A DNA stretch of 64,000 bases, taken from positions 138,678 to 202,677 of the IMG/VR virus record IMGVR_UViG_3300037067_013225, one strand, 5' to 3'. A program made the translations under genes and the position numbers. Below, one piece after another: positions 6,350 through 60,532 of this stretch (the first letter of the stretch is position 1; the number at the start of each line of letters is the position of its first letter). The DNA comes from a virus (Duplodnaviria; Caudoviricetes). The notes under the pieces are model-generated. The model had not been told where the DNA came from and searched no databases. It worked only from the letters and a program-made list of their open reading frames with translations.

Positions 6350-6748
6350 TTAAAAATCTATCTCTTGGAAATCCCTTTCCATAAGACTGACAAAATATTT
6401 TTCCACGATTTTAATCATATCTTGTGCGTCGATAATTGTTTTATTTCCGATTGATACTGCGTTGATGGCCTCTTTCATCTCGCGCCACGTTATGGTCCAT
6501 AGAATATCTGCCTGTCGCTCACCATTCGGTGTATATTCGTGCGTCAATGCAGGTGGGCAGTGCTCTAATACTTGTATAAAAAACTCATAATATGGAAAAT
6601 TATTATTTAACGAGTTTATTATTTCGCCGAAAAAGAGATCAACGAATTCCCTTTTCGCTATGTCGGCGCGAATAAGGACATTATCATCCGTAATATCTGT
6701 TAAATTAATGGTGAGTGATCTGCACAGACTGCAATCATCTGCTAGCAT
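6350..6748 (-). CDS. Hypothetical protein, IDF-tagged (FQEIDF*)
   Basis: ORF track; C-terminus DFQEIDF-TAA. Confidence 0.75.
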   Translation of the reverse strand: MLADDCSLCRSLTINLTDITDDNVLIRADIAKREFVDLFFGEIINSLNNNFPYYEFFIQVLEHCPPALTHEYTPNGERQADILWTITWREMKEAINAVSIGNKTIIDAQDMIKIVEKYFVSLMERDFQEIDF

Positions 6749-7302
6749 TTACTCCACCCACAATTAATACAATATTTACAACCAGCCTCATATACTAGGG
6801 ACATTTCTGCACATGTAGGACATTTCTCTATTTTTTTATTCTTAATATAGAGACTTAATCGTTTCGCTATATGATATGTGATGTTAGAAACGTTATGATC
6901 TAGAGAATTTAGCACATCTACCACTCGCTCTACTGGAACTTCGTGCCGCAATAATAATGACACGGCTCTACTAAGTTTACCAGTATTCGGTTCGTTTTTT
7001 CCCTTAATCTTTTGCTCAGTTAAAAAGATATCCTCGATACCGAATAGCTTTCCTAGCTCATTCAATCTGTCTATAGCGTCAGATATATTTGCGGATGAAT
7101 CTCGCGAATTCGTTTTAATGAATACTTCGTAAGGTTTTCCGTTGTGTATATTGATCGTTAAGTACCATTTCTTCCCCTCGGCTCTAATATCGTATGTTTT
7201 ACCATCCAATACCGAGGGTCGTTTTTCAACGACACGTTCCATTTGAGCTAAATCACGGTTCACCTGAGAGATATCTGGATCTTCATTTGTCATTGTGCTC
7301 AA
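6742..7302 (-). CDS. NrdJb-like C-terminal subunit (TSCPD domain plus Zn ribbon) of a split class II ribonucleotide reductase
   Basis: KWYLTIN..KPYEVFI, LSRAVSLLLRHEVP, terminal CPTC..LVYEAGCKYCINCGWSKC. Confidence 0.75.
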   Translation of the reverse strand: MSTMTNEDPDISQVNRDLAQMERVVEKRPSVLDGKTYDIRAEGKKWYLTINIHNGKPYEVFIKTNSRDSSANISDAIDRLNELGKLFGIEDIFLTEQKIKGKNEPNTGKLSRAVSLLLRHEVPVERVVDVLNSLDHNVSNITYHIAKRLSLYIKNKKIEKCPTCAEMSLVYEAGCKYCINCGWSKC

Positions 7303-8739
7303 TTTTCACATCCAATATTTGGGCTAGTTTTTCAAACCACAATAATGCTGTTTCGATATCATTGCTACTACCTAGACAGTGTTGGCGATTATCCTCAAAA
7401 TGTATCCATAATTTAGCCACATCACCTTCTTCGAACCGTAACCCAGAGACTAATTCGTGAGGGCAAAAACCCACCGGGATATTGCCTTCTCCGAATCCCT
7501 CATCAAAGAACAATAATTTTGTTTTTTTAGAGCACACAAAACTGTGTGGCTCTGACAGATTTGTACTAAGGGCCAAAACGCTCTCATTGTCGCAAAAATT
7601 ATCAATCTTTTTCATTCATGATATCTCGGATTCTTTTAATTTTACTGGGATTGGTTATATTCCATTTATGCGTATGATCCTCTGAAATAATCAACGGTGT
7701 TAGTTCATTCTCGGAAATCTCCAAAAAGGTCATCCATTCTGGTAGCGCTTTGCGTTGCGATGATACATCCATGTTACGGAATATTTCGTTAAGATCTGCG
7801 AATACATGGATATTGCAGTCTTTCGGTGGTTTTACATTTCGGAAAAACATTTCTACAAAAAGATCCCATACTTCAGTATCAGACATTAGTATATTGTCTG
7901 AAATTACATCTTGTACATCGCATATCTCTATGTGTTTGAAAGCGATTTTCAATTGTGCGACGATATGTTTATGTATCTTTGTTACAACTTTACATTGTGT
8001 ATTCTCGATCCAACTATACATATCTGAAAAATCTTTCGGAAATGTAGATGATTTAATCACAGATGTAACGATATTGTCATAGATATCAGGATCTATGTCA
8101 ATGAATAGGCTTCCAATTGAATATGCTAGCGGTTTCATTATTTACTCCGATTCCATAAAAACATCCACATATATAATATGCACAATCCGTGTTCTCCGAT
8201 ACTCAACAAGGCACGGCCCTTATGATCCGCATCATTTGTCCATCTATTCAGATAGAATGAACCAATAGCCAATCCTCTACCTTTAGATCCTCCCCATACA
8301 CAGTGAATTAACGCGCCAATACCGATACCGTATATGCAGAGTAATCCAATAGTGAGATCATAATTTTCAAGCAATCCTACCAAAAACGATATCCATGTCG
8401 GTGTATCGATATATAGAAAGAAACGTAAGGTTTTGGTTTTCTTATAGTAACCTATTATATTAATCATAGAGCGTCCCATTCATCTTCGCTGAGAGTTACG
8501 AACTGATACGTGACGGTTTCACCATCGGTCACGGCAGTAACGGCTTGTTGCATATAGTGAACGATATCGGCACAACTAACCAGATCTCGTCCGATGATTG
8601 CATCTTCTGGGCATTCGCATAGCGGTCCTACATATTGGACTTCCTTGCCATTGATGTATAGTTTTTGCCGGTCATAAAAATCGTCATCCGTGTATGAGTA
8701 AACTACAAGCTCCATGGTTTTTCTCTCCTGATGTGACAT
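7283..8739 (-). other. Four small hypothetical genes (7283-7615, 7602-8138, 8138-8479, 8464-8739)
   Basis: Contiguous overlapping ORFs. Confidence 0.55.
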
Positions 8740-9296
8740 TGTTTTTCCAAAATAGATATCGCGCGATGATATTTCGCTTGCTTCCGCTGATATCGGTTCA
8801 GATCTTCTCCCGATACTGATGTGAACAATTTTTCCACTCGTTCAGAATCGGTATTATGTCTAAGATCGGCCAACTTAACATATCCCGCAATCAGATTTTC
8901 GCTTGCGGCAATATTATCTATATAAGTATCATATTCACAAAAATTATCATGCGTCAAGATATCGATTGTTTCCGCAATCGTGTCTCCAAACAATCCCTTG
9001 ATAATTTTATATGTATTGGGGATTTCTTTACTGCAAGGCTCTACAAATGGGCCATCCTCCCAAGCATCATGCAAATATGCCACTATTGTACAGTCATAAT
9101 ACAATGGATGAATAGTGAATGGCTTTGCGCTTGACTCCAATATATCTGATACGTGATTAACCACAGCATTGATATGATGCATATATGGCTTTCCCACAAG
9201 ATCGTGCTGTCCGTAATGATATAGTTCCGCCATCGACCGAGCCATATCAACCTGGCGTTGTCTGTAACAGTAATCTGTTTCTGAATATTCTGGCAT
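8703..9296 (-). CDS. HD-domain hydrolase, RelA/SpoT/Mesh1-like
   Basis: H.GQ.D..GKPY..H, AYLHDAWED, VKLADLRHN motifs. Confidence 0.8.
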   Translation of the reverse strand: MPEYSETDYCYRQRQVDMARSMAELYHYGQHDLVGKPYMHHINAVVNHVSDILESSAKPFTIHPLYYDCTIVAYLHDAWEDGPFVEPCSKEIPNTYKIIKGLFGDTIAETIDILTHDNFCEYDTYIDNIAASENLIAGYVKLADLRHNTDSERVEKLFTSVSGEDLNRYQRKQAKYHRAISILEKQCHIRREKPWSL

Positions 9297-9302
9297 GGTC
9301 TA

Positions 9303-9331: not shown

Positions 9332-9333
9332 GT

Positions 9334-14295: not shown

Positions 14296-14925
14296 TCAAA
14301 AATCAATTTCTTGAAATTCTTTTAATTCAGAGTTCAGGGCGGCAATGGCGATATCAGCAAAGTTTATGTTTGGATTAGCTTGTGCGGCACAAAGAGCAGC
14401 ATGAGCAGCATAAGCGGCAGTATGAGCACCACTAGTACCAGCGGCATAAGCAACATAATAAGCAACATTAGTGATACTAGCAGCAGCATAAGTAGCATGA
14501 ACGGCAGCGTAATAAGCGGCAGCGGTATTAGCAGCAGCACGAGGATGAGTTTTAGCCCGAAGCTTCCCTGATACAGTTTTGGCAGTCTCGGAGCTTCGAT
14601 CCGTTCCATCAATCCAGGCATTCGCCCACGAAACGAACACAGGATCGTTGTACACGGCTAGCGCGCATTGGATCGCAAACCACTGACGCTGAACAAGAGT
14701 GAATTCCGGCACATAGGTCTCTCGCAGAAGTGTGAATTCGCCGTCAAAGCGCAGAAGATTATTTTTCTTGCCAGATGCTTCAAAAATCCTAAGATGTCCG
14801 AATCTCTCGAATATGGGGGTCGAAAGTACAGCTAATTCCGGGTTGGCGTAAGCAAAACCGAAGCGTTTTATGCCGATTTCCCACAAACCATCATTGTTCA
14901 TGTTTTCGTCTGTGATCACATACAT
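14296..14925 (-). CDS. Ala-rich variable paralogue family member 1, IDF-tagged
   Basis: Shared core PELAVL..RIFEASG..FTLLRET..QWFAIQCALAV..PVFVSWANAWI.GTDRS; ends FQEIDF. Confidence 0.85.
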   Translation of the reverse strand: MYVITDENMNNDGLWEIGIKRFGFAYANPELAVLSTPIFERFGHLRIFEASGKKNNLLRFDGEFTLLRETYVPEFTLVQRQWFAIQCALAVYNDPVFVSWANAWIDGTDRSSETAKTVSGKLRAKTHPRAAANTAAAYYAAVHATYAAASITNVAYYVAYAAGTSGAHTAAYAAHAALCAAQANPNINFADIAIAALNSELKEFQEIDF

Positions 14926-14930: not shown

Positions 14931-15077
14931 TCAGAAATCGATCATGGTCAATGGTTTGTCATCCGGAGTATCTGGTGTATCATCGCCAAGGCGCGGCATT
15001 CCCATTCCCCATGAGGCGAATGCCTTAGCCCATAATTTGGGCCAGATATAGTTATCGACGCAATCTTCCGTATTCAT
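14931..15077 (-). CDS. 48-aa protein absent from the ORF track, IDF-tagged
   Basis: Manual translation MNTEDCVDNYIWPKLWAKAFASWGMGMPRLGDDTPDTPDDKPLTMIDF*; GAGGAG upstream. Confidence 0.75.
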   Translation of the reverse strand: MNTEDCVDNYIWPKLWAKAFASWGMGMPRLGDDTPDTPDDKPLTMIDF

Positions 15078-15425: not shown

Positions 15426-15743
15426 TCAGAAATCGATCATTGTTAGTTCTTTATATTTTAGAGATTCGGGTATTAGTGCTTCCAATTTATCTATGCAATC
15501 TTGCTTACTTCCTTGATGAAGTACACCACCACCACACTCCATCAACATGATAATGTCATTGCGACAAGTATATGCTTTGTAATTACCATCGACTGGTACT
15601 ATATTCCCATATAAACGGTTGTTTATATCTACACAGAACAGACAAGAGTCTCTATATTCTGTATACCATGATCTCTCTGTATACCATGATCTCGATCCTT
15701 TTTCGCGCATTTCTTGAGGCAATTCGTCCCATGATACCATCAT
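15426..15743 (-). CDS. Hypothetical protein, IDF-tagged (LTMIDF*)
   Basis: ORF track; contains tandem RSWYTE duplication. Confidence 0.75.
   Translation of the reverse strand: MMVSWDELPQEMREKGSRSWYTERSWYTEYRDSCLFCVDINNRLYGNIVPVDGNYKAYTCRNDIIMLMECGGGVLHQGSKQDCIDKLEALIPESLKYKELTMIDF
15658..15693. repeat. Perfect 18-bp tandem duplication
   Basis: TCTGTATACCATGATCTC x2. Confidence 0.9.
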
Positions 15744-16324
15744 TAGAAGTCAATCTCCCAAAATTCTTTTTCAAACCATATCGCTTGCCGTGCAAGATCG
15801 GCATAATCTATGCCTGGGATGCCATCCGTGGCAGAAACGTAGCTATCAAAATGGAGAGCGCTAGCATAAATGATAGATTTAACGGCCCAAGCGGGGCTAG
15901 TATAGAGGAGGGAGTCAAATTTTCTAATCTCATCGAGAACAGTTTTGGCAGTCTCAACGCTTCGATCCGTTCCATTGATCCAGGCATTCGCCCACGAGAC
16001 GAACACAGGATCATTGCAGACTTTTAATGCGCATTGAATTGCAAACCACTGACGCTGAACAAGAGTGAATTCTGGCACATGGGTCTCTCGCAAAAGTGTG
16101 AACTTACCGCTAGAGCGCAGAGGATGGTTCATTTCTCCCGATGCTTCAAAAATCCTAGGGTGGTCGAATTTCACATATGCGGGTTGTACAAGCACCGCTA
16201 GCTCCGGACTGGTATAGGCACGACCACAATATATTTCACCGATTTCAACCGGAGTACCATTGGGGATATTCCCAGCTATAACCACATATGAAATTTTCTC
16301 ACACATATTTAATACGCGCTCCAT
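15743..16324 (-). CDS. Paralogue family member 2, IDF-tagged (FWEIDF*)
   Basis: Same conserved core as 14296-14925 but different N-terminus and variable segment. Confidence 0.85.
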   Translation of the reverse strand: MERVLNMCEKISYVVIAGNIPNGTPVEIGEIYCGRAYTSPELAVLVQPAYVKFDHPRIFEASGEMNHPLRSSGKFTLLRETHVPEFTLVQRQWFAIQCALKVCNDPVFVSWANAWINGTDRSVETAKTVLDEIRKFDSLLYTSPAWAVKSIIYASALHFDSYVSATDGIPGIDYADLARQAIWFEKEFWEIDF

Positions 16325-19300: not shown

Positions 19301-19619
19301 CTATGGAGGAGAGTTTTACCAGATTATGATACCCTGAGAGATTCTCTGCAAGTAATACTACGTGAGAATATTCTTTGGATTTTTGTTCTTTTTGCTGATT
19401 TAATGCTATGTCGGAGAAATAGAATTCCGCTCCGAATATGGGTTTGATGTTATGTTTCGATGCCGATTTGTATAATTCTGCAAACGGTGACACAGTTCCA
19501 TGTTCAGTTAAGGCTACCGCTGGCATATTTAGTGCGGCGGCTTTGGCGCAAATAGCATCTACACTGCCGAGAGCATCGTTCAAGCTATGTGTAGAATGAT
19601 GGTGCAACGATATATACAT
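16299..19619 (-). CDS. dnaE: DNA polymerase III alpha subunit (family C)
   Basis: PHP domain HHHSTHSLNDALG / TEHG / TNDVHF; DIDCD; GIHASG; KFDFLGL; VYQEQIM; YAFNMGHA; HhH and OB fold. Confidence 0.95.
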   Translation of the reverse strand: MYISLHHHSTHSLNDALGSVDAICAKAAALNMPAVALTEHGTVSPFAELYKSASKHNIKPIFGAEFYFSDIALNQQKEQKSKEYSHVVLLAENLSGYHNLVKLSSIANTEGFYYRPRISWNEIEQHNEGIISLSACVGGLICKLLKDDRALEAEERLQRWNDIFKDRFYLEVQKHPSVDIQEPLNAQIIALAGKYSLPVVATNDVHFVEPSHLDTHKILLSKKQSKKLGDKNFVYVYDESFYFKSEQEMLDQFDDKYVHQSGEIADRIEIFNPSVEDYNLPQFKLNDTVLDEETASTILAAKCALALEKKSLNIPQYNERLKEELKIIADFGFSNYLLIVADELDWCRNNHIATGPSRGSSASSLVNYLCGITAFDPVHYNLDFARFLNEGRIKIENGKRTYTSMIDIDCDISRTGRDRFLEHLSETYGHVYHLGTHLRYTVKTAVKAVGTALGVSATTMNEFTELLTESEPGTRNLVSLDWNIKQKQVADFITRNNLQKVVQLAKPLEGGYSARGIHASGIVMSRTNIDHIVPVRRGDEDAFPVIEFDMESVEKFTKQIKFDFLGLRNVTVIEEAEHFIKQRHAEQIIPEYSDFSDTSVLAAEHGLDNIFQLSSALAQKYYRATNPKNELELADVISIIRPGVSMSGWADQYVKGGFKHKISALNQLLKSSRGIMVYQEQIMEIAKKIAGFTPAKADDLRSACGKKIPEKMALLLDDFEQGAIKNGYTHNQIEYIVKQIKDAALYAFNMGHAMSYAALAYKTLWLKHYFPTEFYCAVLNSYIGKSEEIKGVVNNIRQGGYRLLLPNINTSGQSYTVEYDPDPAIRIGLGGIKGVGPAALKILLELRPFSSVDDFITRVPKRQCNKRVVEALINAGAFDTLCGRDDALSLLTGTTIVTTQDDQAYAEYDVLGDFFTYNPYMAHACFKQLSYIKPSDVLNNIAPHISVIGFVEDFSIEATKKNKSPYVNIIITDGLQNLKAIGFSKVVEEKIDILTRAKKERLPITISGQLSTECGEDGDIYLPSCRVKIQDPSQLNLWEPQGSTLMIRVADEFVEPLLEDLPTGDCDIVIYSVVGRTRREVKTTGYIDEPTLHWLREVYGARIKYV

Positions 19620-20224
19620 TAAAAATCGATCTCCTGGAATTCTTTTAAGTCAAAGTTTAGAGCGTTGGCGGCGATATCAGTGAAGTTTATGCTTGGATTA
19701 ACTTCCGCTGCATAATAAGCAGCATCAGCAGCAAGAATAGTAGCGTTAGCAGCATAAGCAGCATCAGAAATATCAACAGCACAAGCAGCAGCATTAGCGG
19801 CGGCATCAGCAACAGCAACGTGAGTAGCACGAGTAGCATGATCGGCCCAAAACTTCCCTGATACAATTTGAGCAGTTTTGGAGCTTCGATCCGTTCCATT
19901 GATCCAGGCATTCGCCCACGACACGAACACAGGATCATCACACACGGCTAGCGCGCATTGAATCGCAAACCACTGACGCTGAACAAGAGTGAATTCCGGC
20001 ACATAGGTCTCTCGCAAAAGTGTGAATTCGCCATCAGAGCGCATAGGATCGTTCATCTCTCCCGATGCTTCAAAAATCCTAGGGTGGTCGAACGTCTCGT
20101 ATATGGGGTTTATAAGTACGGCTAGTTCCGGGCTGGCGTAAGCAAAACCGGAACGTTTTATGCCGATTTCCCACAAACCATCACTGTACATATCTTCATT
20201 TATAATCACGTACATGTTCATCAA
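19619..20224 (-). CDS. Ala-rich variable paralogue family member 3, IDF-tagged
   Basis: Conserved core, Ala-rich segment, ends FQEIDF. Confidence 0.85.
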   Translation of the reverse strand: MMNMYVIINEDMYSDGLWEIGIKRSGFAYASPELAVLINPIYETFDHPRIFEASGEMNDPMRSDGEFTLLRETYVPEFTLVQRQWFAIQCALAVCDDPVFVSWANAWINGTDRSSKTAQIVSGKFWADHATRATHVAVADAAANAAACAVDISDAAYAANATILAADAAYYAAEVNPSINFTDIAANALNFDLKEFQEIDF

Positions 20225-20547
20225 AAATCAATCTCCACGAATTGAATATCTAATGGTGAACTTATACTATTAAGCAGACTGAAGAATTGATCTACATTGA
20301 TAATGGGAATTTGCCTTCCTTGACGATGATTCCACTCGTCGAGCAATTCTTTTTTGGTGCTGTTTTTACAACCTCCCAAAACCAAATAGTCAACATTATA
20401 ATAATCATACATTCTGTGTATTGTGGCTTTATGGCGGAAATATTCAGATCCCATTTCTTTATTCTTATCTTTTATGGCATCAATGAGTGTCTGACGCGAA
20501 TAAATCGTTCTACCGGTAAAGACAAACCTCATCAACATTCGTCCCAT
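20221..20547 (-). CDS. Stand-alone BRCT-like domain protein, IDF-tagged (FVEIDF*)
   Basis: FVFTG..SR...VDYLVLG...STKK...IPIINVDQF resembles the LigA-type BRCT domain. Confidence 0.6.
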   Translation of the reverse strand: MGRMLMRFVFTGRTIYSRQTLIDAIKDKNKEMGSEYFRHKATIHRMYDYYNVDYLVLGGCKNSTKKELLDEWNHRQGRQIPIINVDQFFSLLNSISSPLDIQFVEIDF

Positions 20548-22181
20548 TGCCCATTCGGGTGGATTTTGTATGTTTTGTAAACAGCTTCAGGAAACTGGTC
20601 GAAATAGGTTGTGGTCATATAATCCTTCATATAAACGACTATGATTTTGGTATTTTTCACATCCAAATTTGTCCAAAACGATCCGTTAAAACATCCATCC
20701 GTAAATACATACGCGATACGGCCATAGTCGCGATTATAATTGCCCTGATTTGTTAGATGTTCCATCCAACAATCATTTGTTCCACCGGATGTTTGAAATT
20801 TGTTATTCGCGATATCGGATTCGCTGCATTTATAAACGAATGTCGAAAAAGCATATACTTCATCGAAATAATCGATATTATATCGGATAGAATCAAAAAA
20901 TATCTTATGATATGCATCAGTAGAGCCGGATACATCAAAATAAGCTGTTACGTAAAGATTCATATCCGGTAATGGACATTTAAAAAATGGTTGATGTACA
21001 CGCATGGCACCATAAAGAGCTAGTTTACGATCTTTATGATGGGGGAATACGCGCCTGGTGGAACGATCTCCTCTGATTTTTAGAAAATCCTTTTCTAGTG
21101 TTTGCTTTAACCCAACCGGTGTTGAAACAATTGGAATATCTTGTGTTGGATCGTGATGATATTCGGAGAAAAATTCATCAACTATCTCCTCATACAAAGT
21201 CGTGGCTGTTGGATCGCAACCTTGAGATCCCTTTTTAGCTTTTCTGGTTCCAGGTTTTTGTCCCGACTCAGAAAGTTCCTTCAACGCTTCTGCAATGGCG
21301 GATTGTATTTCCGGATCGATAATTACATCTGAACCAGATTTGCCGTTTCCACCTTCGCCATCTTGATTGCCGTCTTGCTCATCCTTACCGTTTCCGCCAT
21401 CTTCACTATCCTCGTTGTTATCACAGGGTTCGTCAGAGTCGTCCTCGCCTAGAGTAGCCTGAATTTTGCCATCCTCACCCACCTGTGGTTCACCATGACT
21501 ACCTAGAAGGATTATCGTGGTAGTTCCACCTTCCGGCATCGAACCAGAAATGGCCTGTTTTAATTCATACATCGAAACAGAATCTTCGCTATAAAGAGCG
21601 TCATAAACTTGTTTCAAGTATGGATCGGTAATCTGGCTATTCGGACGCAAAAATGCATAAGGTAATTCGTCTGCTTTGTAGAGTTTTTCAAACATGGTTT
21701 GAAATTCTGGTTGCAGGTTGTACTTTTTGCAAATGACGCTATTTACTACCGCATCATATATGATGTTATCCAACATTAGTTCTTGAGAAGATTTCTTTTC
21801 GGGTTTGTTCAAGATATTCATGTGGCCTAATGCGCTATGCATGACCTCATGAATAATTAATGTTGTGAATTCGTAAGCATTGATCTTGTTTTCTACCAGG
21901 AATTCTTCGAACACTTCCATGGTAAGATTTCCGGGTTTGGCAATGATTCTAGCCGTTTTGCCATATATAAGATTGCTTAGATATTTGTTTTCCGGAGAAT
22001 CGATGGGAATCATTCTGATATTGCAAATGCACACCAGATTATATAGTGCAAATTTGTAATCTTTGACAAGATTCAAAAATGTATCATAAAATAGATCCCA
22101 TTGTCCTGCCTGATATGGTGTTAGCGGGTCCATATTATTCCTTTGATGCAAAATAATCCTTATATCCGGGGTAAACGACAA
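20532..22181 (-). CDS. Metallopeptidase-like plus VWA domain protein (DUF2201-like MoxR partner)
   Basis: IIHEVMH (HExxH), acidic Gly-rich linker, FDVSGS, GGT, FTDG MIDAS elements. Confidence 0.8.
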   Translation of the reverse strand: MSFTPDIRIILHQRNNMDPLTPYQAGQWDLFYDTFLNLVKDYKFALYNLVCICNIRMIPIDSPENKYLSNLIYGKTARIIAKPGNLTMEVFEEFLVENKINAYEFTTLIIHEVMHSALGHMNILNKPEKKSSQELMLDNIIYDAVVNSVICKKYNLQPEFQTMFEKLYKADELPYAFLRPNSQITDPYLKQVYDALYSEDSVSMYELKQAISGSMPEGGTTTIILLGSHGEPQVGEDGKIQATLGEDDSDEPCDNNEDSEDGGNGKDEQDGNQDGEGGNGKSGSDVIIDPEIQSAIAEALKELSESGQKPGTRKAKKGSQGCDPTATTLYEEIVDEFFSEYHHDPTQDIPIVSTPVGLKQTLEKDFLKIRGDRSTRRVFPHHKDRKLALYGAMRVHQPFFKCPLPDMNLYVTAYFDVSGSTDAYHKIFFDSIRYNIDYFDEVYAFSTFVYKCSESDIANNKFQTSGGTNDCWMEHLTNQGNYNRDYGRIAYVFTDGCFNGSFWTNLDVKNTKIIVVYMKDYMTTTYFDQFPEAVYKTYKIHPNGQWDEC

Positions 22182-24380: not shown

Positions 24381-24439
24381 AGTATAGCAGAAAAATCCGC
24401 GTTTGTCAAGCTTGACTTTCTGGTATTTTGTGTTATAAT
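24381..24439. promoter_or_regulatory. Back-to-back divergent sigma70 promoters at the main strand switch
   Basis: Minus TTGACA(24409-24404)-17-TATACT; plus TTGACT(24412)-16-TATAAT(24434); the -35 boxes form palindrome GTCAAGCTTGAC. Confidence 0.85.
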
Positions 24440-45713: not shown

Positions 45714-46151
45714 ATGGAACGTACCAATATGGATCGATATAAATTATCAGATTTGGTATATTTTGCGGATGGAACTCCATTTAATACGGAAAATTATCAG
45801 TCTAGATATATAACGTCCGTGGAGGAATGGAAAAAGATCGTCCTTATGTATCCGCCGTTAGGATATCCGCATGGAACAATTTTGCACATAATAATAAATC
45901 AGATAGACGGATATCCGATACGATACGTAACATACAATGGACGAACAGGAACATACAATCCGTCACCAGCAGTAAGAGGAATTGATCCTGGCACATCGGA
46001 AATGAAAATCGGTTATTCAGATAGAGGCACATTATATGATGTTACTTTGCGTTTAGGTGGCACTCTAGATAACATTATCGTTTACGAAATCATCCCCTCT
46101 TATAATGCCATTATGTATCCAGCACCAACACTAACGGAAATTGATTTCTAA
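45714..46151 (+). CDS. Hypothetical protein, IDF-tagged (LTEIDF*)
   Basis: ORF track. Confidence 0.75.
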   Translation: MERTNMDRYKLSDLVYFADGTPFNTENYQSRYITSVEEWKKIVLMYPPLGYPHGTILHIIINQIDGYPIRYVTYNGRTGTYNPSPAVRGIDPGTSEMKIGYSDRGTLYDVTLRLGGTLDNIIVYEIIPSYNAIMYPAPTLTEIDF

Positions 46152-46471
46152 TGCAGCAAGGTGACGAAAAGATATTCCTCATCAACGAGAAAACATATAT
46201 TACTCGATATGATTATATGGATAAAACTAATCCCAATTGTATGTGGAATAAATATGTGATTTTATCCGAGCCTTATTACTCATGGCGCAAAAAATATATA
46301 TTCTCATATGTGGAAGAACAGTATGAGAATCCGTCTAATGTTCGCGTTACTGTACATTTACATTATAATATTGTTATAGCTGAGCGAACGATTGATGAAA
46401 CTATTGGTTTATTGGAACATTTTTATAAAGATTTTGGTAGAGCCGAAGACATGGTTATGATCGATTTTTAG
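46151..46471 (+). CDS. Hypothetical protein, IDF-tagged (MVMIDF*)
   Basis: ORF track; its 3' end overlaps the convergent HNH gene. Confidence 0.75.
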   Translation: MQQGDEKIFLINEKTYITRYDYMDKTNPNCMWNKYVILSEPYYSWRKKYIFSYVEEQYENPSNVRVTVHLHYNIVIAERTIDETIGLLEHFYKDFGRAEDMVMIDF

Positions 46472-47776: not shown

Positions 47777-48139
47777 ATGACTACAACTGAAACTAGTTTT
47801 TTGACAAAAAATATTTCATTTGGTGTTGACGATATCGCTGCCAGAAATCGATTTCGACTGATTCATGTGGCTTCGGAAGGGGGAGATACCGCTTGTACGG
47901 CATCTATTGTGGGAAAACTTGGTGTTGCAATGCTGCAACAGATATCTTGTTATTCTACGGAAAGCACCGCAACGTTATCTATAACTTATGGAACTACGGT
48001 TGTGTGGAAGCAATTAGTAGGGAATACTTTTCGTTGTATCGATATCAAGATTCCCAACACGCAGGGAGAAGATGTTACGATATCATTAAGCGCATCAGGT
48101 GCGGGTAGTTATTTGGATGTTACGTGGGTTTTGGTTTAG
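47777..48139 (+). CDS. Hypothetical beta-rich protein
   Basis: GGAG SD; isolated plus-strand gene. Confidence 0.6.
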   Translation: MTTTETSFLTKNISFGVDDIAARNRFRLIHVASEGGDTACTASIVGKLGVAMLQQISCYSTESTATLSITYGTTVVWKQLVGNTFRCIDIKIPNTQGEDVTISLSASGAGSYLDVTWVLV

Positions 48140-48441
48140 AAATCTATCATTTCATATTCGAATTCGAATAAATTTATGATGAAGTTCATGTAAGTATAAT
48201 GGTTTTCATTGTCCCATACATAATCAACACAATAATACGTGTTATTCTCGAATGTAATATACATAGGTACAACATCACCTTCGGTTAGCATCCATCCATC
48301 TTGTATATAGATTGCTACACTGAATATCTGATTGTATATATCCAGTGGTAATAATCCGAACGATAGATATCGGCATTCGTGCAAATCAGTCGGAACAGGA
48401 AGCGGATGTACCAGTATATCTTTTTTAAGCTTATACATCAA
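48136..48441 (-). CDS. Hypothetical protein, IDF-tagged (YEMIDF*)
   Basis: ORF track; convergent with 47777-48139. Confidence 0.75.
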   Translation of the reverse strand: MMYKLKKDILVHPLPVPTDLHECRYLSFGLLPLDIYNQIFSVAIYIQDGWMLTEGDVVPMYITFENNTYYCVDYVWDNENHYTYMNFIINLFEFEYEMIDF

Positions 48442-48836
48442 AAATCAATTTCCTGTAATGAATCCGCTTCAGGCTCTACCAAATCTCGCAGTAAGCACAT
48501 GGTTTCTCCAGTCATTACATTTGAGGCAGTTTTCATATCATCGGAAAACCACTTTGTGTTGCGACGGCATTGATACCATGGTTTCTTTTCTGGATGATAT
48601 TCTCTAACATCAATCCAATCATCGGGATTTCCATCCAGGGGTAGGATATTTTCGAAATTGGCTAACTTGGTGAATAAAGCTATCACAGCATCAGCGCTAC
48701 CCCCCGAATGTTCCTGAGATGCGAATAATTCCATCAAATGCATTACACTGAGACGAATCAGACCGTCGTAATCTTCGTCGCCAGTCCCGGCATATAACAG
48801 GTCAAGCTCTCGCTGTGCGTGCTCTATTAAACTCAT
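48438..48836 (-). CDS. Phage protein, IDF-tagged (LQEIDF*), leaderless
   Basis: HAQRELD..FASQEHSGGSA; ATG 5 nt after the -10 box. Confidence 0.75.
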   Translation of the reverse strand: MSLIEHAQRELDLLYAGTGDEDYDGLIRLSVMHLMELFASQEHSGGSADAVIALFTKLANFENILPLDGNPDDWIDVREYHPEKKPWYQCRRNTKWFSDDMKTASNVMTGETMCLLRDLVEPEADSLQEIDF

Positions 48837-48901: not shown

Positions 48902-49148
48902 AGTGGTACCTAGGGTCTATTCCGGGTATATTGTGATAGTTGATGTTTTGGAGAACAAATGACGCAAACGATATTCGTTGGTAACAAGGGCGACAGTGTG
49001 CGCTTTCAGCAATATTGGCCTTGTATCGTGAGAGATATTTCTCCCGGTAAAGATCGGCTTGAGATTGAATTCGTAGTTGGGAAACATACATATGTATGGG
49101 AAGTTCCCGCCACCGTAGTAGATCGCAATCCATTTGCCGGGAGTAAAA

Positions 49149-49754
49149 ATGCGTAATGCGCTAGAAATATCGGAACCGTTAATGCGTTTTGATTCCAGTT
49201 CCGGCGCAGCATGGATATATGATGATATTACAACACATACAGTATTGGAAGTTAGTCGATTTCTGCGCGAAACATATGAAGCGCCAGTATTACAAATAGA
49301 TATAAATAATAATCACGAACGGCGCGACATCATCCTGGAGATTATGTCCGGTGGTGGATGTGTCAAGAGTGCTCTATCAATTTACGATATGTTACGACGC
49401 ACTTCCGAAGCGTTTAAACGTAATGTTGCAAAACCACATATCATTACGGTGGGAGTGGGATTAATTGCATCTAGCGCCACTTTAATATTCGCTGCCGGTG
49501 ATCAACGTCTAGCATACAAACATACAACATTTTTATTCCATCAACCAGAAATATTGGGATTATTTGGCGTTTCTGAACGCATCGCCCGTGAGGGCGAATA
49601 TTTGCAAACGATAGAAACACAAATGACTGCGATTTATAATTCCGTTATTAAAAAGAAAGGTATTGATATTGCGAAAAAGATTAAGGCAAAATCGGATCTT
49701 ATTATTTCCGCGCAAGAAGCGCTTGAATGGGGATTGGTTACGGAAATTTTGTAG
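49149..49754 (+). CDS. clpP: ClpP-family protease subunit
   Basis: IMSGGGCV..SIYD, GLIASSATLIFAAG..R, FLFHQP, DLIISAQEALEWGLVTEI; Ser/His/Asp triad positions present. Confidence 0.85.
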   Translation: MRNALEISEPLMRFDSSSGAAWIYDDITTHTVLEVSRFLRETYEAPVLQIDINNNHERRDIILEIMSGGGCVKSALSIYDMLRRTSEAFKRNVAKPHIITVGVGLIASSATLIFAAGDQRLAYKHTTFLFHQPEILGLFGVSERIAREGEYLQTIETQMTAIYNSVIKKKGIDIAKKIKAKSDLIISAQEALEWGLVTEIL

Positions 49755-50808: not shown

Positions 50809-51201
50809 ATGCCAAACGAATTATATGATGCATTATATTCGGTAGACTATTCTGGCCCTATTCTAATTACAAGGCACAAATTCTTTACGGATGTTTTTCC
50901 TTTAGGAATCGTTTTTTGGTTTGAAGTGGGAAGGATGCGCGACGGAAGAAACACTCTGGACATCCATTACAAACTGGTAGATAGCTCTTATCGATATGCC
51001 AAGTTTGCTGCCACATATCATGTTTTCGGATATTGTGTGTGGGAGAGGGATCATTCTGTGTGTGATTTTTATCCAGCCCAGACCTCAGATTTTGGTCTTG
51101 ATAGATATATGTTATCGAAAGACGAACTTTTATCGCACATTAATAATTGTCTTAGCAAATATCTGACGGATTCAGATCGGTGGGTGGAAATTGATTTTTA
51201 G
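50809..51201 (+). CDS. Hypothetical protein, IDF-tagged (WVEIDF*)
   Basis: ORF track. Confidence 0.75.
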   Translation: MPNELYDALYSVDYSGPILITRHKFFTDVFPLGIVFWFEVGRMRDGRNTLDIHYKLVDSSYRYAKFAATYHVFGYCVWERDHSVCDFYPAQTSDFGLDRYMLSKDELLSHINNCLSKYLTDSDRWVEIDF

Positions 51202-51529
51202 CATGGAAGAAATCGTGTATCATTTCTATGCATTAGATAGCGTACATCCCATAGATTTGGGAATATTTTCCAAATTGGGATATGTGCCGGATTCGTGTTT
51301 TATGATAGAGCCATCACAAACATATGACGAATGGATGGTGTATGGATTCGGCCCAAAACGATTACAAGGTTATGCGGGTCGCGGCAATTTGGCACCATGG
51401 TTTTTTAGAACTGCCGATAAGCCAACTTTTAATATTGAAGCGGCAAGTATTGAATCGCTTCTTTTGGCTATAAATGATTATATGATCGGTAGACACCCCA
51501 TAAAAGAGTGGCAGGAGATTGACTTTTGA
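51191..51529 (+). CDS. Hypothetical protein, IDF-tagged (WQEIDF*)
   Basis: ORF track; likely ATG 51203. Confidence 0.75.
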   Translation: MIFSMEEIVYHFYALDSVHPIDLGIFSKLGYVPDSCFMIEPSQTYDEWMVYGFGPKRLQGYAGRGNLAPWFFRTADKPTFNIEAASIESLLLAINDYMIGRHPIKEWQEIDF

Positions 51530-51780
51530 ATACGTTGGATTTGCGCGCTCTCGATATCGGAACATTAGTTTCGACTAAACGTGGATGTGTGTTTATTAAA
51601 TTTGCTTCAGTTGATAGATCCTGGTGTAAAGACGAAACTGGCATATGGTACCATCATTGTAATACAATGGGAAACATATGTGCAAATTATTCTGACGAAG
51701 TATTATTTAGCGATCAAGAAATCGCTTCAAAGCATGTAAAACGATTTTATGAAATGCATTATGAGGAGATTGATTTTTGA
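51526..51780 (+). CDS. Small protein, IDF-tagged (YEEIDF*)
   Basis: TTG start overlaps the previous tag; N-terminus similar to the next gene. Confidence 0.7.
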   Translation: MNTLDLRALDIGTLVSTKRGCVFIKFASVDRSWCKDETGIWYHHCNTMGNICANYSDEVLFSDQEIASKHVKRFYEMHYEEIDF

Positions 51781-52022
51781 CAACTCAAGATTTGCGCAAT
51801 GCGCGGATAGAAACAATCGTATACCTGGAATGCGGATGTAGTTATGAAAAACGGTCAATATTCCATTGGATTAAATGTAGAATCGATAGCGATTATGAAT
51901 TTACCGTTCGATGCTCCCATCCATATCGAATGATCCTTACCAACTGCGAACTGGCGCGGTATGCTGTGGCGTTTGTTCCATCGGTCGTACCGGACAGAGA
52001 ATACGTCATGATCGATTTTTAA
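51777..52022 (+). CDS. Small protein, IDF-tagged (YVMIDF*)
   Basis: TTG start overlaps the previous tag. Confidence 0.7.
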   Translation: MTTQDLRNARIETIVYLECGCSYEKRSIFHWIKCRIDSDYEFTVRCSHPYRMILTNCELARYAVAFVPSVVPDREYVMIDF

Positions 52023-54782: not shown

Positions 54783-56207
54783 ATGATGCATATTTTACGT
54801 ATTAGGCATGGATTTGCCACAAATAGTTCCTCCACGCATTCTATCGTGATGATTCGTCCGGGAGAACATATTTACGAGGATATTTGTAATGCACCCCAAT
54901 TCGACTGGGAATGCTTTACATTAACCGAGAAAAATATGAAGTTGCAATATTTGGCGCAACAACTGCGATGCATTGGTGCCTATGATACTGTAGCAAAGAA
55001 ATTCATTCGGAGGCATGATGAGGATTTTTTAGAGCGGTTGCTGGGAATTACTGTAGATGATACGGGGACTATCGATCACCAGAGTGTGTTGTCTTTTCCT
55101 CGGAATTTCGACGATACTATTAATTTCGATTTTATAAAAGATTTTGCCAAATTCCTCTCCAGAGATGATGTGATGATTCTGGGTGGCAATGATAATGGAG
55201 GGGATCATGATCTAGAGCGACCATCTTGGGCATCTAAAGAAAATAACTTTGTTGAATACGAGAATCAACGTCATGACGCATGGTACGACATTCTGGATCA
55301 GCATTTGTATGCGATCAATTATAAGGATTATTGGCTCTTATTCAATCCGAATACCGGTAGTAAATATCGTGTATCGTTTGATCAAATCAAACCAGAAATA
55401 CGTAAAAGTATTGCGCCTGAACTGGTTGATTTAAAAATTACCGATTATTGTGACAGAGGTTGTACATATTGTTATCAGGGATCAACCACATCTGGCAAGC
55501 ACGCATCTTTTACAAATATTAAGAAAATTATCGACCGACTATCCGAATCGCATTGCCTTGAAATAGCTATCGGTGGAGGAGAACCCACATCACATCCGAA
55601 ATTTTTAGATATTTTATCATATGCACAGAAAAAGAATATCTTTCCGTCATTTTCAACGCGAAATTATCAATGGATCAACAACAATGTTCCATCGAGAGAA
55701 ATGTCCGTATATACTTCGGCCATAGGGTATTCAATAGAAAGTATCGCGGATCTAGAAAAGCTCAAAATAGACTCGTATTATCGCAAGAAGATTGTTCCCC
55801 ATATCGTTTTAGGTACGGTGCAGGATTTGGACGGTTTGCTTAGATATTGTGCGCAAAATTCTTATACGCCATTGCTACTTGGATACAAAAATACCGGTAG
55901 AGGCTCTACTCCATCATTTCCATATACCGAAGAAACAGTACATAAAGCTATTGCTTTATCAGGCTTAGAATCCATTGGCTTAGATACATCCGCTGTCAAG
56001 CAAATACATGCAACTCAGTGGAGCGATATAGTAGAGCCTGCCCTGTATATGACAGACGGTGAGGGGGATTTCTCCTGCTATATGGATGCCGTTACCATGA
56101 CGATGGCACGTTCATCTTATTGCGGAGAAAAGGCACCCCTGAGGGATAATTGGTTGCAGGTGTGGGAATCTTACCGATATGATAACTGGCAGGAAATCGA
56201 TTTTTAA
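54783..56207 (+). CDS. Radical SAM enzyme, IDF-tagged (WQEIDF*)
   Basis: N-terminal RHGFATNSSSTHS; CDRGCTYC (CxxxCxxC); IAIGGGEPT.HP. Confidence 0.85.
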   Translation: MMHILRIRHGFATNSSSTHSIVMIRPGEHIYEDICNAPQFDWECFTLTEKNMKLQYLAQQLRCIGAYDTVAKKFIRRHDEDFLERLLGITVDDTGTIDHQSVLSFPRNFDDTINFDFIKDFAKFLSRDDVMILGGNDNGGDHDLERPSWASKENNFVEYENQRHDAWYDILDQHLYAINYKDYWLLFNPNTGSKYRVSFDQIKPEIRKSIAPELVDLKITDYCDRGCTYCYQGSTTSGKHASFTNIKKIIDRLSESHCLEIAIGGGEPTSHPKFLDILSYAQKKNIFPSFSTRNYQWINNNVPSREMSVYTSAIGYSIESIADLEKLKIDSYYRKKIVPHIVLGTVQDLDGLLRYCAQNSYTPLLLGYKNTGRGSTPSFPYTEETVHKAIALSGLESIGLDTSAVKQIHATQWSDIVEPALYMTDGEGDFSCYMDAVTMTMARSSYCGEKAPLRDNWLQVWESYRYDNWQEIDF

Positions 56208-57510: not shown

Positions 57511-57529
57511 CCAGATTTGTAGAGCGGGC

Positions 57530-57638: not shown

Positions 57639-59056
57639 ATGAAACGTTATGTAATCGAATTTTGGGATTCTAATGCGTGGAATATTATGAGCGACAGCAA
57701 AAATCCCCATGGATGGGAATACAAGACTCAGGCTCTACAACGATGCGCGGAACTTAATCGCGAAACAGATCACAATACCCGTCAGGGAGCATTTAATGGA
57801 CATCGATATCGTGTACGTAAACGCGAAATATAAGGAGATGAAATGATTAGTGAAATCGCTAAAACAGTTGGAGAAACTATTCAAGTGAGCAGCATGGAGG
57901 TATCAAAGCTCTTAGAGCAGGTGGCTTCGGCTCTAAAGATTCCTGTAGAGTTCGTGTGGGAGCAGGTATTAAGACAAAACTATTATTACGCCACCGCAGA
58001 TTTGGTTTTTGCGGGAATTTTTCTCGTGATATTTCTTATATCGTTACCATTCTATATTAGAATGTTTTCTGCAAAATACGGTGGTTATACTTGGGAGGAT
58101 TTGGCTATATTGGTGCCGATTTTTCATGCGATATTTTCCGTAATGTTTATTTCGGTTCTTGTGCCTTGCGGCATTCGTAGACTTGTTGTACCGGCGCTTT
58201 GCGCAATGCAGGATTTGATAAATATTGTAAGCGATCTTAAGGGGTGATATTTTGATGAAAGAGAATATCCATAATATTCACTTATGGTATGACGATAACA
58301 ATGTCTGTTGGTTTGCTTGCGCATCTTATATCAATACCGAGCGCATGAGCGTGGGAATTACTCGTGATGGGCAAAGTCCCGCAGAAGCATTAATGATGTT
58401 GTTGGATGCGGCTGAAATATCCGGATATCTTCCCGCGAATGACAGTAATGTAACCAGACGTTATGAAATAAGGATTAAAGATGAAGTTTGACATCTTCAT
58501 AAGCATTAAAACACAAACAGATGGCAGTGAGAAACAGGCTAAGGCTCTAGAGAATTATTTACTTGCGGCCATCAACCTTACAGTAGAACCTACAGATCAA
58601 GATACAATATCAAGCAAAATTCTTCAACGCACATGCGAATGCGGTGGCGAAATAAAATATCAAGCCACTGACGCAGGTGGATGTACATGTTATGAGGCAT
58701 ATTGTCTAAAATGTGGGCATGTATATAAAGAAGATATCGTGAGCGATTAAATTATGTTAGATTTAGATAAACTGGAGAAATATCCCGATATATATGCGGA
58801 ATTGCTATCATATCGCGGCAAAGACTATTCGTGGACGATCCTCAATATATTGGATATCAGGAGGCGTCGCAAAGCGTGCCAGCAATGGCACGACGAAACA
58901 AAACAAACGTTGAAAAAGATGAGCGGCAAGAATTGCGATAAAATTAGGGCAAAAGTTATATCAGAACGATGCAAACGTCTAGATGTGATGTTGTCACTTT
59001 TAGCCAAACTAGAATACGATCTTGCATTAGAATTACCGAATCTTCCATACGTGTAA
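57639..59056 (+). other. Five small hypothetical genes (57639-57833, 57843-58247, 58252-58491, 58481-58750, 58754-59056)
   Basis: Contiguous ORFs, several with SD sequences. Confidence 0.6.
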
Positions 59057-59091
59057 CCACTTATCAATATTGTGAACACAAAGGAGCCGAA

Positions 59092-59676
59092 ATGATTTAC
59101 AAGCTTACAGACGAAAACATGTGTACGAACGTAGATGAAGCCACGTCCACGTATAGAAACACTCAATGGGTGTTGGGTGATCAAAAGACTTCTACATTTG
59201 GAGAAAAACCGTGTATATCTAACGGTTATCGCGCTTATGCTAGTCCGGAATTGGCGGTGTTAATGGTCGATAGTCGCGATAATTTGACTCGTTTGTTCGA
59301 AGCGGAGGGTTCCGGTGCATACCTCACAGGTTCGTTAGAGTCAAGGTATCAGAACATGACGTTACTTAAAGAGATTCCATTGCCTGAATTTACTCGCAAT
59401 CAGCGCAGATGGTTCGCAATTAAATGTGCGCTAGCCGTGTGTGACGATCCCGTGTTTGTGTCGTGGGCGGAAAACTGGATTAACGGGATTGATCGAAGCA
59501 AAGAAACCGCCATGATTGCTTATGAGAAGCTTCGTATTGTTCGTCAGCCCTCCGAGATGCTTATTATCGATTCCGCTTTTACCGCCAATACTAATTTTGC
59601 CGCTTATCTCGTAAAAGAGAATCAGGGTATGGATTTCTCAGATTTAGCCAAGCAAGCGTTATCTTGGCAGGAATAA
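59092..59676 (+). CDS. Paralogue family member 4 (divergent; ends WQE* without IDF)
   Basis: AAGGAG SD; AYASPELAVL..LFEAEG..PEFTRNQRRWFAIKCALAVCDDPVFVSWAENWINGIDRS. Confidence 0.8.
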   Translation: MIYKLTDENMCTNVDEATSTYRNTQWVLGDQKTSTFGEKPCISNGYRAYASPELAVLMVDSRDNLTRLFEAEGSGAYLTGSLESRYQNMTLLKEIPLPEFTRNQRRWFAIKCALAVCDDPVFVSWAENWINGIDRSKETAMIAYEKLRIVRQPSEMLIIDSAFTANTNFAAYLVKENQGMDFSDLAKQALSWQE

Positions 59677-59939
59677 ATATGGTCAATATCCCTCGATTGC
59701 GATACAAATATATGGCTGATGGAGTATATTATATCTATTTGCGCGATGAATATGTTGGTTCAGTCAGGGAAGTTGAATATTATTACGGACGCTTATATAA
59801 CTTTGAATTTAGGCATCCCAATGATGGTGTGGGATTCGAGGAGTATAATTACGAATACGGGCAGAAAATGTTCAGAGAATTGCTTATTCAACGTCTGGCT
59901 AGGGATTCAGAAATAGCATTGGTGGAGATTGATTTCTGA
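59664..59939 (+). CDS. Small protein, IDF-tagged (LVEIDF*)
   Basis: ORF track; likely ATG 59679. Confidence 0.75.
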   Translation: MAGINMVNIPRLRYKYMADGVYYIYLRDEYVGSVREVEYYYGRLYNFEFRHPNDGVGFEEYNYEYGQKMFRELLIQRLARDSEIALVEIDF

Positions 59940-60532
59940 TGTACGTAATTACAAACGAAAACATGCACAACAATGGTTTGTGGGAAATCGGCATAAAACG
60001 TTCCGGTTTTGCTTATGCTAGCCCGGAGCTAGCGGTGCTTGTGCAACACGCATACGAGAAATTCGAACATTTTAGGATTTTTGAAGCATCTGGCAAGGGA
60101 AATAATCTTCTGCGCTTTGACGACGAATTTACACTTTTGCGAGAGACCTATGCGCCGGAATTCACGCCGAATCAGCGCATTTGGTTTGGCATTCAATGCG
60201 CATTAGCCGTGTGTGACGATCCTATGTTTGTGTCGTGGGCGAATGCCTGGATTGATGGAACTGATCGAAGCTCCAAGACTGCCCTAATTGTATCAAGGAA
60301 GCTTTGGGATGAAAATATTAATGTTCCTGCTGCTGATGCTGCTGTTTATGCTGCTCACATTGCTGTTGATGTTTCTGGTGATGCTCATGCTGCTCATGCT
60401 GTTGGCCGTGCGATTGCTTATTCTCGTGCCGCCTATTATGCAGCGCAAGCTAATCCGAGCATCAACCTTGCTGATATCGCCGTTGCTGCTCTACACTTTG
60501 ACTTGAGAGAATTTCAGGAGATTGATTTCTGA
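59939..60532 (+). CDS. Ala-rich variable paralogue family member 5, IDF-tagged
   Basis: Conserved core, Ala-rich segment, ends FQEIDF. Confidence 0.85.
   Translation: MYVITNENMHNNGLWEIGIKRSGFAYASPELAVLVQHAYEKFEHFRIFEASGKGNNLLRFDDEFTLLRETYAPEFTPNQRIWFGIQCALAVCDDPMFVSWANAWIDGTDRSSKTALIVSRKLWDENINVPAADAAVYAAHIAVDVSGDAHAAHAVGRAIAYSRAAYYAAQANPSINLADIAVAALHFDLREFQEIDF

Follow-up and report, generated by a model that had tools for sequence, protein, structure and literature searches.

C-terminal peptides that are read by one receptor are known in kind, and the closest published parallel to the case described here is provided by the FxSxx-COOH/RxD/acidic vWA-MoxR systems (peptide-processing systems; Kaur et al. 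2020, PMC7159879, citing Haft and Basu 2011). Systems combining a vWA domain with a MoxR ATPase often occur together with a zincin peptidase and with small, fast-diverging proteins with a conserved C-terminal peptide, and metal ion-dependent adhesion sites (MIDAS) bind extended peptides (PMC7159879). Here, we describe a phage (Duplodnaviria; Caudoviricetes) in which about one gene in six ends in a common peptide tail with the core hydrophobic-x-[E/M]-[I/V]-D-F-stop, shared by small and otherwise unrelated proteins. The stretch of DNA analysed, hereafter called the window, comprises 64,000 nucleotides (positions 138,678 to 202,677 of IMG/VR record IMGVR_UViG_3300037067_013225) and represents the last 64 kb of this 202,677-bp single-contig phage record; genome-wide counts cover the whole record. 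In the literature, we could not find a phage described that marks genes of unrelated families, amounting to a sixth of its total, with a single terminal peptide differing between lineages.

As in the FxSxx-COOH systems, the phage encodes a MoxR ATPase, a vWA domain, a zincin and small, fast-diverging proteins sharing a conserved C-terminal peptide, and a radical SAM enzyme is found in the genome, the association being by shared genome and partly by shared operon. In contrast to those systems, the peptidase is fused to the vWA domain, and ~49 carriers are distributed across the phage genome, in place of a single precursor beside the peptidase. Among the carriers are folded functional proteins (Tad3, BRCT fold and radical SAM); the radical SAM enzyme bears the tail too and showed no SPASM domain. 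The tail also has a motif other than FxSxx, RxD or poly-acidic, and judging by sequence, neither it nor the maturase conforms to the FxSxx type. A further likeness is found in the pair of MoxR and metallopeptidase-vWA proteins encoded by jumbo phages of group 2.2; the pair has the same domain architecture and likewise occurs in a large phage; unlike in the phage studied here, no shared C-terminal tail is mentioned in the passages on MoxR, vWA and ClpP (PMC7824862).

A shared C-terminal tail on 49 phage proteins

The tail is carried by 49 open reading frames (ORFs) of the genome, 42 ending in [EM]IDF and 7 in [EMWT]VDF, which corresponds to about 16% of the ~290 genes; among genes encoding 220 residues or fewer, the share is 45 of 204. 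The first-pass annotation, a model's reading of the window sequence, had listed at least 22 such ORFs, and all 22 ends were recovered, each of the form [FWYLM]-x-[EM]-I-D-F-stop (Table 1), the real number being larger once the whole genome was considered. An extra short ORF of 19 residues (40441-40500) ends in KIDF, probably by chance.

The enrichment is well beyond that expected from amino-acid composition. Genome-wide, the strict pattern [FWYLM]x[EM][IV]DF was found at 47 C-termini (0.002 expected) and at no internal position (0.46 expected). The commonest C-terminal tripeptide is IDF, found in 40 proteins, with VDF in 6 and the next after these in 3. When only the chemical pattern was required, i.e. 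hydrophobic-acidic-hydrophobic followed by the free carboxylate, 47 proteins of the phage matched compared to 2.7 expected (P 2e-42). An alignment of the last 36 residues of all 49 carriers showed the similarity to be confined to the ~11 final positions, giving the extended pattern hydrophobic-hydrophobic-[DE]-x-x-hydrophobic-x-[EM]-[IV]-D-F, in which Asp at position -1 is invariant, position -6 is Glu in 24 of the 49 and position -7 is Lys or Arg in 22. Searches at the DNA level were uninformative: a degenerate pattern for FQEIDF-stop-ATG gave one match across IMG/VR (L008), rejected as chance because it is not at an ORF end, and a frame-blind degenerate pattern for hydrophobic-E-hydrophobic-stop had matches no commoner than in a reversed control.

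Selection acts on the peptide

The coding of the tail was analysed using the 49 copies within the phage's own genome. The first and second codon positions of I/V, D and F are essentially fixed, while the third positions vary, with entropies of 1.63 (I), 0.41 (D) and 0.99 bits (F). Isoleucine is encoded by ATT (22), ATC (17) and ATA (3), aspartate by GAT (45) and GAC (4), and phenylalanine by TTT (27) and TTC (22), while glutamate (GAG 21, GAA 15) alternates with methionine (ATG 11). The tagged genes are terminated by TGA (24), TAA (23) or TAG (2), and the DNA located 3' of these stops shows no conservation. As the variation is limited to third positions, the stop codons are mixed and the DNA behind them is unconserved, selection acts on the peptide, and it acts on its terminal position. 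The first-pass annotation had argued for peptide-level selection from wobble variation, a claim that the codon statistics bear out; relatives keep the chemical pattern of the tail and not its bases.

The carriers are diverse, fast-evolving accessory proteins

Without their last eight residues, the carriers fall into ~36 groups unconnected by BLAST. They have a median length of 118 residues (range 48-474) and are acidic, with a net charge per 100 residues of -5.0 compared to -0.95 for untagged proteins, and a membrane-like segment was predicted in only 1 of 46 tagged proteins versus 43 of 241 untagged ones. An outer-membrane beta-signal, a DegS-type signal and a type I secretion signal were considered and rejected, since the carriers are devoid of signal or membrane segments and the motifs differ. 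There are no tagged genes in the structural gene blocks, and the earlier observation that no core replication enzyme of the phage carries the tail holds. BLAST detected a homologue in G001, the nearest complete relative (described below), for 1 of the 46 tagged proteins versus 103 of the 241 untagged (P 5e-9), identifying the carriers as a fast-evolving, accessory part of the genome.

Most carriers have no Pfam family (the scans covered 60 proteins). One that does is the product of 48438-48836, which matches PF25185 over residues 1-107 of 132 (E 1.8e-27; 95.9 bits with a cut-off of 27) and is by sequence assigned to the Tad3 family of type I Thoeris inhibitors. Tad3 reportedly acts on type I Thoeris by binding its ThsB sensor and blocking it (PMC13728456). 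A word-index homologue search using this protein returned only itself. The radical SAM enzyme named in the first-pass annotation was confirmed by its match to PF04055, with no SPASM match in the same protein (54783-56207). The BRCT-like carrier of that annotation stood as to fold only: a model of the protein (20221-20547) from the Atlas aligned with ten BRCT clusters over residues 3-98, with TM scores of 0.58-0.63, and no match was found in Pfam or PDB sequence searches. PDB sequence searches with the Tad3-like, BRCT-like and vWA proteins returned nothing useful.

The tail is a separable module

The largest carrier family comprises proteins of ~190 residues. The four paralogues pointed out earlier in the window were confirmed, and the whole genome holds nine tagged and two untagged copies. 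Those without a tail lie at window 58969-59676 and at genome 10098-10685 and close with ..ALxWQE, which is the exact boundary of the tail. The N-terminal half of the family is conserved, with motifs such as YASPELAVL and WINGTDRS, and the helical segment ahead of the tail is rich in Ala and hypervariable; this looks like a diversifying family. In an AlphaFold2 model of the paralogue at 59939-60532 (predicted local distance difference test (pLDDT) 74), the final helix reaches residue 191, and residues 191-197, which make up the tail, are unstructured with pLDDT <50. Foldseek returned no significant match to the PDB for the model of this family. In the Tad3-family carrier, the tail likewise lies beyond the folded part, as the Pfam domain stops 25 residues short of the C-terminus. 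The tail is thus a module added as a flexible end piece. Common descent of the carriers through a shared C-terminal domain was rejected, considering the ~36 unrelated groups, the restriction of similarity to ~11 residues and the untagged paralogues, whose sequence ends precisely at the tail boundary.

Related phages carry their own versions of the tail

The phage belongs, as far as sequence comparison indicates, to a lineage without a cultured relative in the phage collection searched: blastn with 5.9 kb of the window and tblastn with the MoxR and vWA proteins both gave no match in that collection. A relative with 81% DnaE identity exists as a 17.8-kb contig from the Joint Genome Institute (JGI). 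The nearest complete relative is G001, an IMG/VR contig of 220,861 bp that has terminal repeats and a G+C content of 32%. It shares 104 genes with the phage under study, the portal proteins being 52% and the capsid proteins 62-66% identical. G001 has no IDF tails (pattern matches equal the control), and ~15 of its proteins instead end in D-[LI]-[ED]-[IVLF]. In a third lineage, L026 (23 kb, 35% G+C), [DE]-I-E-[IL] or a similar end is found on 6 of ~31 genes, and a fourth fragment, L029, includes a gene ending in RDVEL. The tails are thus EIDF in the phage under study and DLEI, DIE[IL] and DVEL in its relatives. Ends of the type hydrophobic-acidic-hydrophobic-COOH number 17 in G001 (3.4 expected, P 9e-8), 6 in L026 (0.35 expected, P 1e-6) and 2 in L029 (0.14 expected, P 0.008). 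Across 35 unrelated DnaE-bearing viral loci with 759 genes, 11 such ends were counted compared to ~7.6 expected, and C-terminal tripeptides were hardly ever shared there.

Two sets of orthologues, one of them weak, link these variants. The BRCT-fold carrier, the only tagged protein with a clear G001 homologue (32% identity, E 8e-13), ends in ..FVEIDF in the phage under study and in ..NVDLEI in G001. The gene following the primase gene ends in ..MQMIDF, in ..DFELEI in G001 and in ..RDVEL in L029; these genes match by position, with weak sequence similarity. The first-pass annotation had suggested checking whether orthologues lack the tail, and in the BRCT case the orthologue carries a tail of the G001 type instead. 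Orthologues having the tail of their own lineage indicate that selection maintains it even as the exact residues drift, which would be expected if it co-evolved with a reader.

Some core proteins of these phages have similar ends. The DnaB-like replicative helicase of L026 (L026:483-1694, - strand) ends in ..EEIEL, which is the tail of that lineage, unlike the helicases of the studied phage and G001, which have no tail. A 313-residue core protein (genome 86138-87079, - strand; L005:6138-7079) ends in ..YEIDI, a near-match to the tail, and its G001 orthologue in ..YNIDK.

A MoxR and zincin-vWA module is a candidate reader

We consider it probable that the sequence functions as a portable C-terminal docking tail read by one partner. 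Such a partner would recognize the aliphatic-acidic-hydrophobic pattern together with the free alpha-carboxylate, and would handle the ~49 tagged accessory proteins as one class. The first-pass annotation had proposed a single receptor for the free-carboxyl tail, with packaging, localization or timed degradation of the carriers as the outcome. Selection on the peptide, its C-terminal position and the unrelated carriers all fit this idea, as do the lineage-specific variants and the two orthologue sets with tails of their own. As each lineage has its own variant, we propose that the tail and its reader drift together.

The first-ranked candidate for the reader, which the first-pass annotation did not name and which we put forward tentatively, is a three-gene module of the phage comprising a MoxR-type ATPase, a protein of unassigned family and a zincin-vWA protein. 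The genes appear to form the start of an operon in the order MoxR, 224-residue protein, zincin-vWA, two tagged genes, dnaE, four tagged genes and one untagged gene, with a near-consensus sigma-70-like promoter match just upstream of MoxR. The MoxR protein matches AAA_3 (39.2 bits, cut-off 27) and AAA_5 (39.0 bits, cut-off 22), and scores just below the cut-off for bpMoxR (26.2 bits, cut-off 27). The module adjoins dnaE in four relatives (G001, L026, L029 and L028), three of which, G001, L026 and L029, have a tail of their own; none was seen in the 11 kb of L028.

The model of the 549-residue zincin-vWA protein has two confident domains connected by a disordered acidic linker. The C-terminal domain (residues 360-549, AlphaFold2 pLDDT ~93) is predicted to have a vWA fold, as nearly all top Foldseek matches in the PDB were vWA or integrin I domains with probability 1.00, including BatB, CMG2 and Rea1-MIDAS. 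The N-terminal domain is a putative zincin by its HExxH motif. Across 92 homologues, no variation was seen at the MIDAS residues D416, S418, S420 and D495 or at H111 and H115 of the zincin motif, and T468 (MIDAS) and E112 (zincin) were each conserved to at least 90%. The Pfam matches of these homologues were DUF2201_N (26), VWA_CoxE (19) and DUF2201 (10). Integrin-type vWA/MIDAS domains bind peptides of the LDV and IDS type, and the tails are comparable in consisting of an aliphatic, an acidic and a small or hydrophobic residue (I-D-F, L-E-I, L-D-V, I-E-L), a likeness we treat as an analogy only, and one that does not extend to location, as integrin ligand motifs are internal whereas the phage tail is restricted to a free C-terminus. 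By the same analogy, an invariant Asp with an aliphatic residue and a terminal hydrophobic residue bearing the free carboxylate could suit a MIDAS site. The MIDAS metal would then bind the tail Asp or the terminal carboxylate, flanked by the hydrophobic residues, and the client would next reach either the ATPase ring, to be remodelled, or the fused peptidase, which would remove the tail or turn the client over at a set time. A complex prediction of the zincin-vWA protein with the alignment of the last 36 residues of the tagged proteins and Mg/Zn, run without controls, gave a score of 0.00 and was used neither way.

Several observations weigh against this assignment. The module is also present in bacterial chromosomes (L033 and L035) lacking tagged neighbours, which suggests that its ancestral role is independent of tags, and no tags were found within 10 kb on either side of a vWA-peptidase homologue in a viral contig (L058). 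A MoxR and peptidase-vWA pair in jumbo phages was discussed by Iyer et al. 2021, who proposed a role in virion assembly (PMC7824862). A host protein is just as conceivable as the reader, and a test of covariation between tail and reader would need more than the four or five lineages available. A weak excess in favour of the module was found on an unrelated 190-kb phage contig that has it, where 3 of 36 genes end in [IV]-E-I (P 0.009). Two further vWA homologues are located on contigs of <2 kb and have no context. In the two bacterial assemblies, the genes for MoxR, a small protein and zincin-vWA (L033:8084-11341 and L035:7885-11371) lie directly upstream of an S-adenosylmethionine synthetase gene.

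Alternative explanations

The tail might instead be a degradation tag, by which a host or phage unfoldase-protease (ClpXP-like, possibly with the phage's ClpP-family protein, or the zincin domain) would remove early accessory proteins on schedule. Degrons depending on a free C-terminal carboxylate are well established, e.g. ssrA and MuA with ClpX. Among the phage's proteins are one of the ClpP family, conserved in G001, and a zincin peptidase with an intact HExxH motif, and the accessory carriers sit in operons with replication genes. However, the best match of the ClpP homologue is a head maturation protease, and no ClpX-like or ClpA-like unfoldase was found among the window genes scanned. 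The known C-terminal degrons of ClpX are moreover non-polar (LAA) and blocked by acidic substitutions near the end, whereas the phage tail has an invariant Asp at -1; the dependence on a free carboxylate is common to both. We regard a degron as unlikely. The ClpP-family gene adjoins recA and a RuvB-like gene and lies far from the portal and capsid genes, and the four other head-region proteins covered by the same search gave no protease match. As a pattern match only, I-D-F, L-E-I and I-E-L also fit PDZ class II ligands (hydrophobic-x-hydrophobic-COOH). No PDZ family member was found among the 60 proteins scanned against Pfam, and the lack of signal or membrane segments in the carriers argues against periplasmic PDZ proteases.

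An unlikely explanation as well, and one that we would rate low, is a capsid-targeting signal, in which the tail would dock proteins inside the procapsid to be packaged and injected as a counter-defence kit. C-terminal targeting to HK97-fold shells is known from the C-terminus of the HK97 protease and from encapsulin cargo-loading peptides, while the T4 capsid-targeting sequence is N-terminal and cleaved off; injected anti-restriction proteins are known as well (T4 IPI and P1 Dar). The phage tail resembles such peptides in being short, transferable and common to unrelated proteins, which the peptides lead to one destination, and the carriers include a Tad3-family immunity inhibitor in a genome that also encodes a ClpP-family head protease. 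The difference lies in where and, seemingly, when the carriers are expressed. The portal and major capsid protein genes are found at genome 52-64 kb, whereas the tagged genes are outside the structural blocks, in operons with replication genes and behind sigma-70-like promoter matches, suggesting early rather than late expression. In addition, the major capsid protein is 62-66% identical to that of G001 while the tails differ, and forty-nine cargo species would be unusually many.

A dock on the replisome, be it a sliding clamp, the polymerase or a hub similar to single-stranded DNA-binding protein (SSB), is in our opinion improbable. The chemistry is similar, as the SSB tip (DDDIPF) and the acidic Phe tails of T7 gp2.5 and gp4, which are recognized by a hydrophobic pocket whose rim is basic, are also flexible and acidic with a terminal Phe and a free carboxylate. 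Clamp-binding motifs, such as the C-termini binding T4/RB69 gp45, QL[SD]LF, QLxLxL and the QVELEF of DnaE, are likewise reminiscent of xVEIDF, and a clamp pocket might be filled by the last and third-from-last hydrophobic residues. Both dnaE and the primase gene are flanked by tagged genes, the DnaB-like helicase of L026 ends in EEIEL, and the clearly G001-conserved carrier has a BRCT fold, which is common in DNA-repair proteins. On the other hand, the Gln at the first position of clamp-binding motifs is not required, the aligned position being F/L/Y/W/M, with Q in only 15 of 49 tails. With SSB one tail meets many partners, while here many unrelated proteins share one tail, presumably for a single partner, and the Tad3 and radical SAM carriers have no evident need of a replisome. 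Neither the phage under study nor G001 gave a match to the beta clamp (DnaN) or SSB family profiles, and the DnaE of the clade (16299-19619, - strand, in the window; orthologues in G001, L026 and L028) lacks the ~40-residue segment holding the internal clamp-binding motif of E. coli DnaE. The undetected clamp and SSB genes and the missing DnaE segment weaken the clamp and SSB analogies of the first-pass annotation, as the absence of signal or membrane segments does its PDZ analogue where periplasmic proteases are concerned.

Finally, a nucleotide-level element (translational coupling, a Shine-Dalgarno-like signal or a recombination junction) with the peptide as a by-product, which might be suspected since the stop of a tagged gene often overlaps the start of the following one (TGATG or TAATG) and a G-preceded GAG resembles a ribosome-binding site, is effectively excluded by the codon pattern with its Glu/Met alternation, by relatives sharing chemistry and not bases, by the unconserved post-stop DNA, by the 11 nucleotides counted between GAG and the overlapping ATG, too distant for a good ribosome-binding site, and by tails on genes with no gene following (46471 and 48136).

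Gene positions and other features of the genome

The positions of the tagged genes in the window and of the genes discussed above are collected in Table 1.

Table 1 Tagged genes and related features of the window. Lengths are in amino acids (aa); tails are given as the last six residues.
Feature	Position	Strand	Description
Tagged ORF	6350..6748	-	132 aa, FQEIDF; no Pfam match
Tagged ORF, ~190-aa paralogue family	14296..14925	-	209 aa, FQEIDF
Tagged ORF	14931..15077	-	48 aa, LTMIDF
Tagged ORF	15426..15743	-	105 aa, LTMIDF
Tagged ORF, ~190-aa paralogue family	15743..16324	-	193 aa, FWEIDF
Tagged ORF, ~190-aa paralogue family	19619..20221	-	200 aa, FQEIDF; stop overlaps dnaE start
Tagged ORF, stand-alone BRCT-fold protein (model match)	20221..20547	-	108 aa, FVEIDF
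Zincin (HExxH) metallopeptidase and vWA with complete MIDAS	20532..22181	-	549 aa; candidate reader
Protein of unassigned family between MoxR and vWA genes	22135..22809	-	224 aa; conserved in all relatives
MoxR-type AAA+ ATPase	22809..24359	-	516 aa; first gene of leftward operon
Sigma-70-like promoter match	24381..24409	-	TTGACA, 17 nucleotides, TATACT, with TG; consensus match only
Tagged ORF directly after primase gene	25638..26300	+	220 aa, MQMIDF
Tagged ORF	29057..29251	+	64 aa, FQEIDF
Tagged ORF	29256..29513	+	85 aa, FVEIDF
Tagged ORF	38498..38839	+	113 aa, WMEIDF
Tagged ORF	45714..46151	+	145 aa, LTEIDF
Tagged ORF, last before convergent gene	46151..46471	+	106 aa, MVMIDF
Tagged ORF, last of leftward run	48136..48441	-	101 aa, YEMIDF
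Tagged ORF, Tad3 family (by sequence)	48438..48836	-	132 aa, LQEIDF; PF25185
ClpP-family protease	49134..49754	+	206 aa; best PHROG match head maturation protease
Tagged ORF	50809..51201	+	130 aa, WVEIDF
Tagged ORF	51191..51529	+	108-112 aa, WQEIDF
Tagged ORF	51526..51780	+	84 aa, YEEIDF
Tagged ORF	51777..52022	+	81 aa, YVMIDF
Tagged ORF, radical SAM enzyme	54783..56207	+	474 aa, WQEIDF; PF04055
Untagged paralogue of ~190-aa family	58969..59676	+	ends ..ALSWQE where tagged copies go on ..[KR]EFQEIDF
Tagged ORF	59664..59939	+	91 aa, LVEIDF
Tagged ORF, ~190-aa paralogue family	59939..60532	+	197 aa, FQEIDF

Some further features of the phage were recorded. The primase (24743-25660, + strand) is of the archaeo-eukaryotic type and matches the archaeo-eukaryotic primase (AEP) family of TOTE conflict systems, and the phage encodes a sigma-70-like factor of its own (27353-28270, + strand). 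The heptamer GGCTCTA/TAGAGCC occurs 62 times in the window, counting both strands, compared to 3.2 expected and a maximum of 8 in shuffled sequence; it is found about once per kb, mostly within genes (e.g. 112-118, 2382-2388 and 62831-62837), and might mark sites recognized in modification, nicking, packaging or recombination. At genome 70972-82214 (L004:10972-20000 and L005:1-2214), eleven genes encode proteins 46-70% identical to those of G001, compared to mostly 25-50% elsewhere. One protein of this block resembles, on inspection by eye, a DegT-type sugar aminotransferase. The block may represent a sugar or DNA-modification pathway.

Implications

With ~49 unrelated proteins having one tail, the phage treats a large and fast-changing accessory set as one class. 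If the reader were identified, a new layer of the cell biology of phages would come to light, in which counter-defence proteins are sorted, timed or chaperoned. As a sequence marker, the tail would point to candidate host-interaction genes among phage orphans, and it could serve as a transferable engineering tag.

A more speculative reading, which we hold to be possible yet doubtful, is client tagging run by the phage itself, with the MoxR/vWA-zincin module reading a lineage-specific tail on a sixth of the proteome. If true, one handle would fold, activate, localize or retire a whole fast-evolving host-interaction arsenal, a newly acquired gene would join the system by gaining about eight codons, and co-evolution of tail and reader would keep co-infecting phages off each other's system. 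The same arrangement may explain the role of the widespread MoxR/vWA-peptidase pairs of phages.

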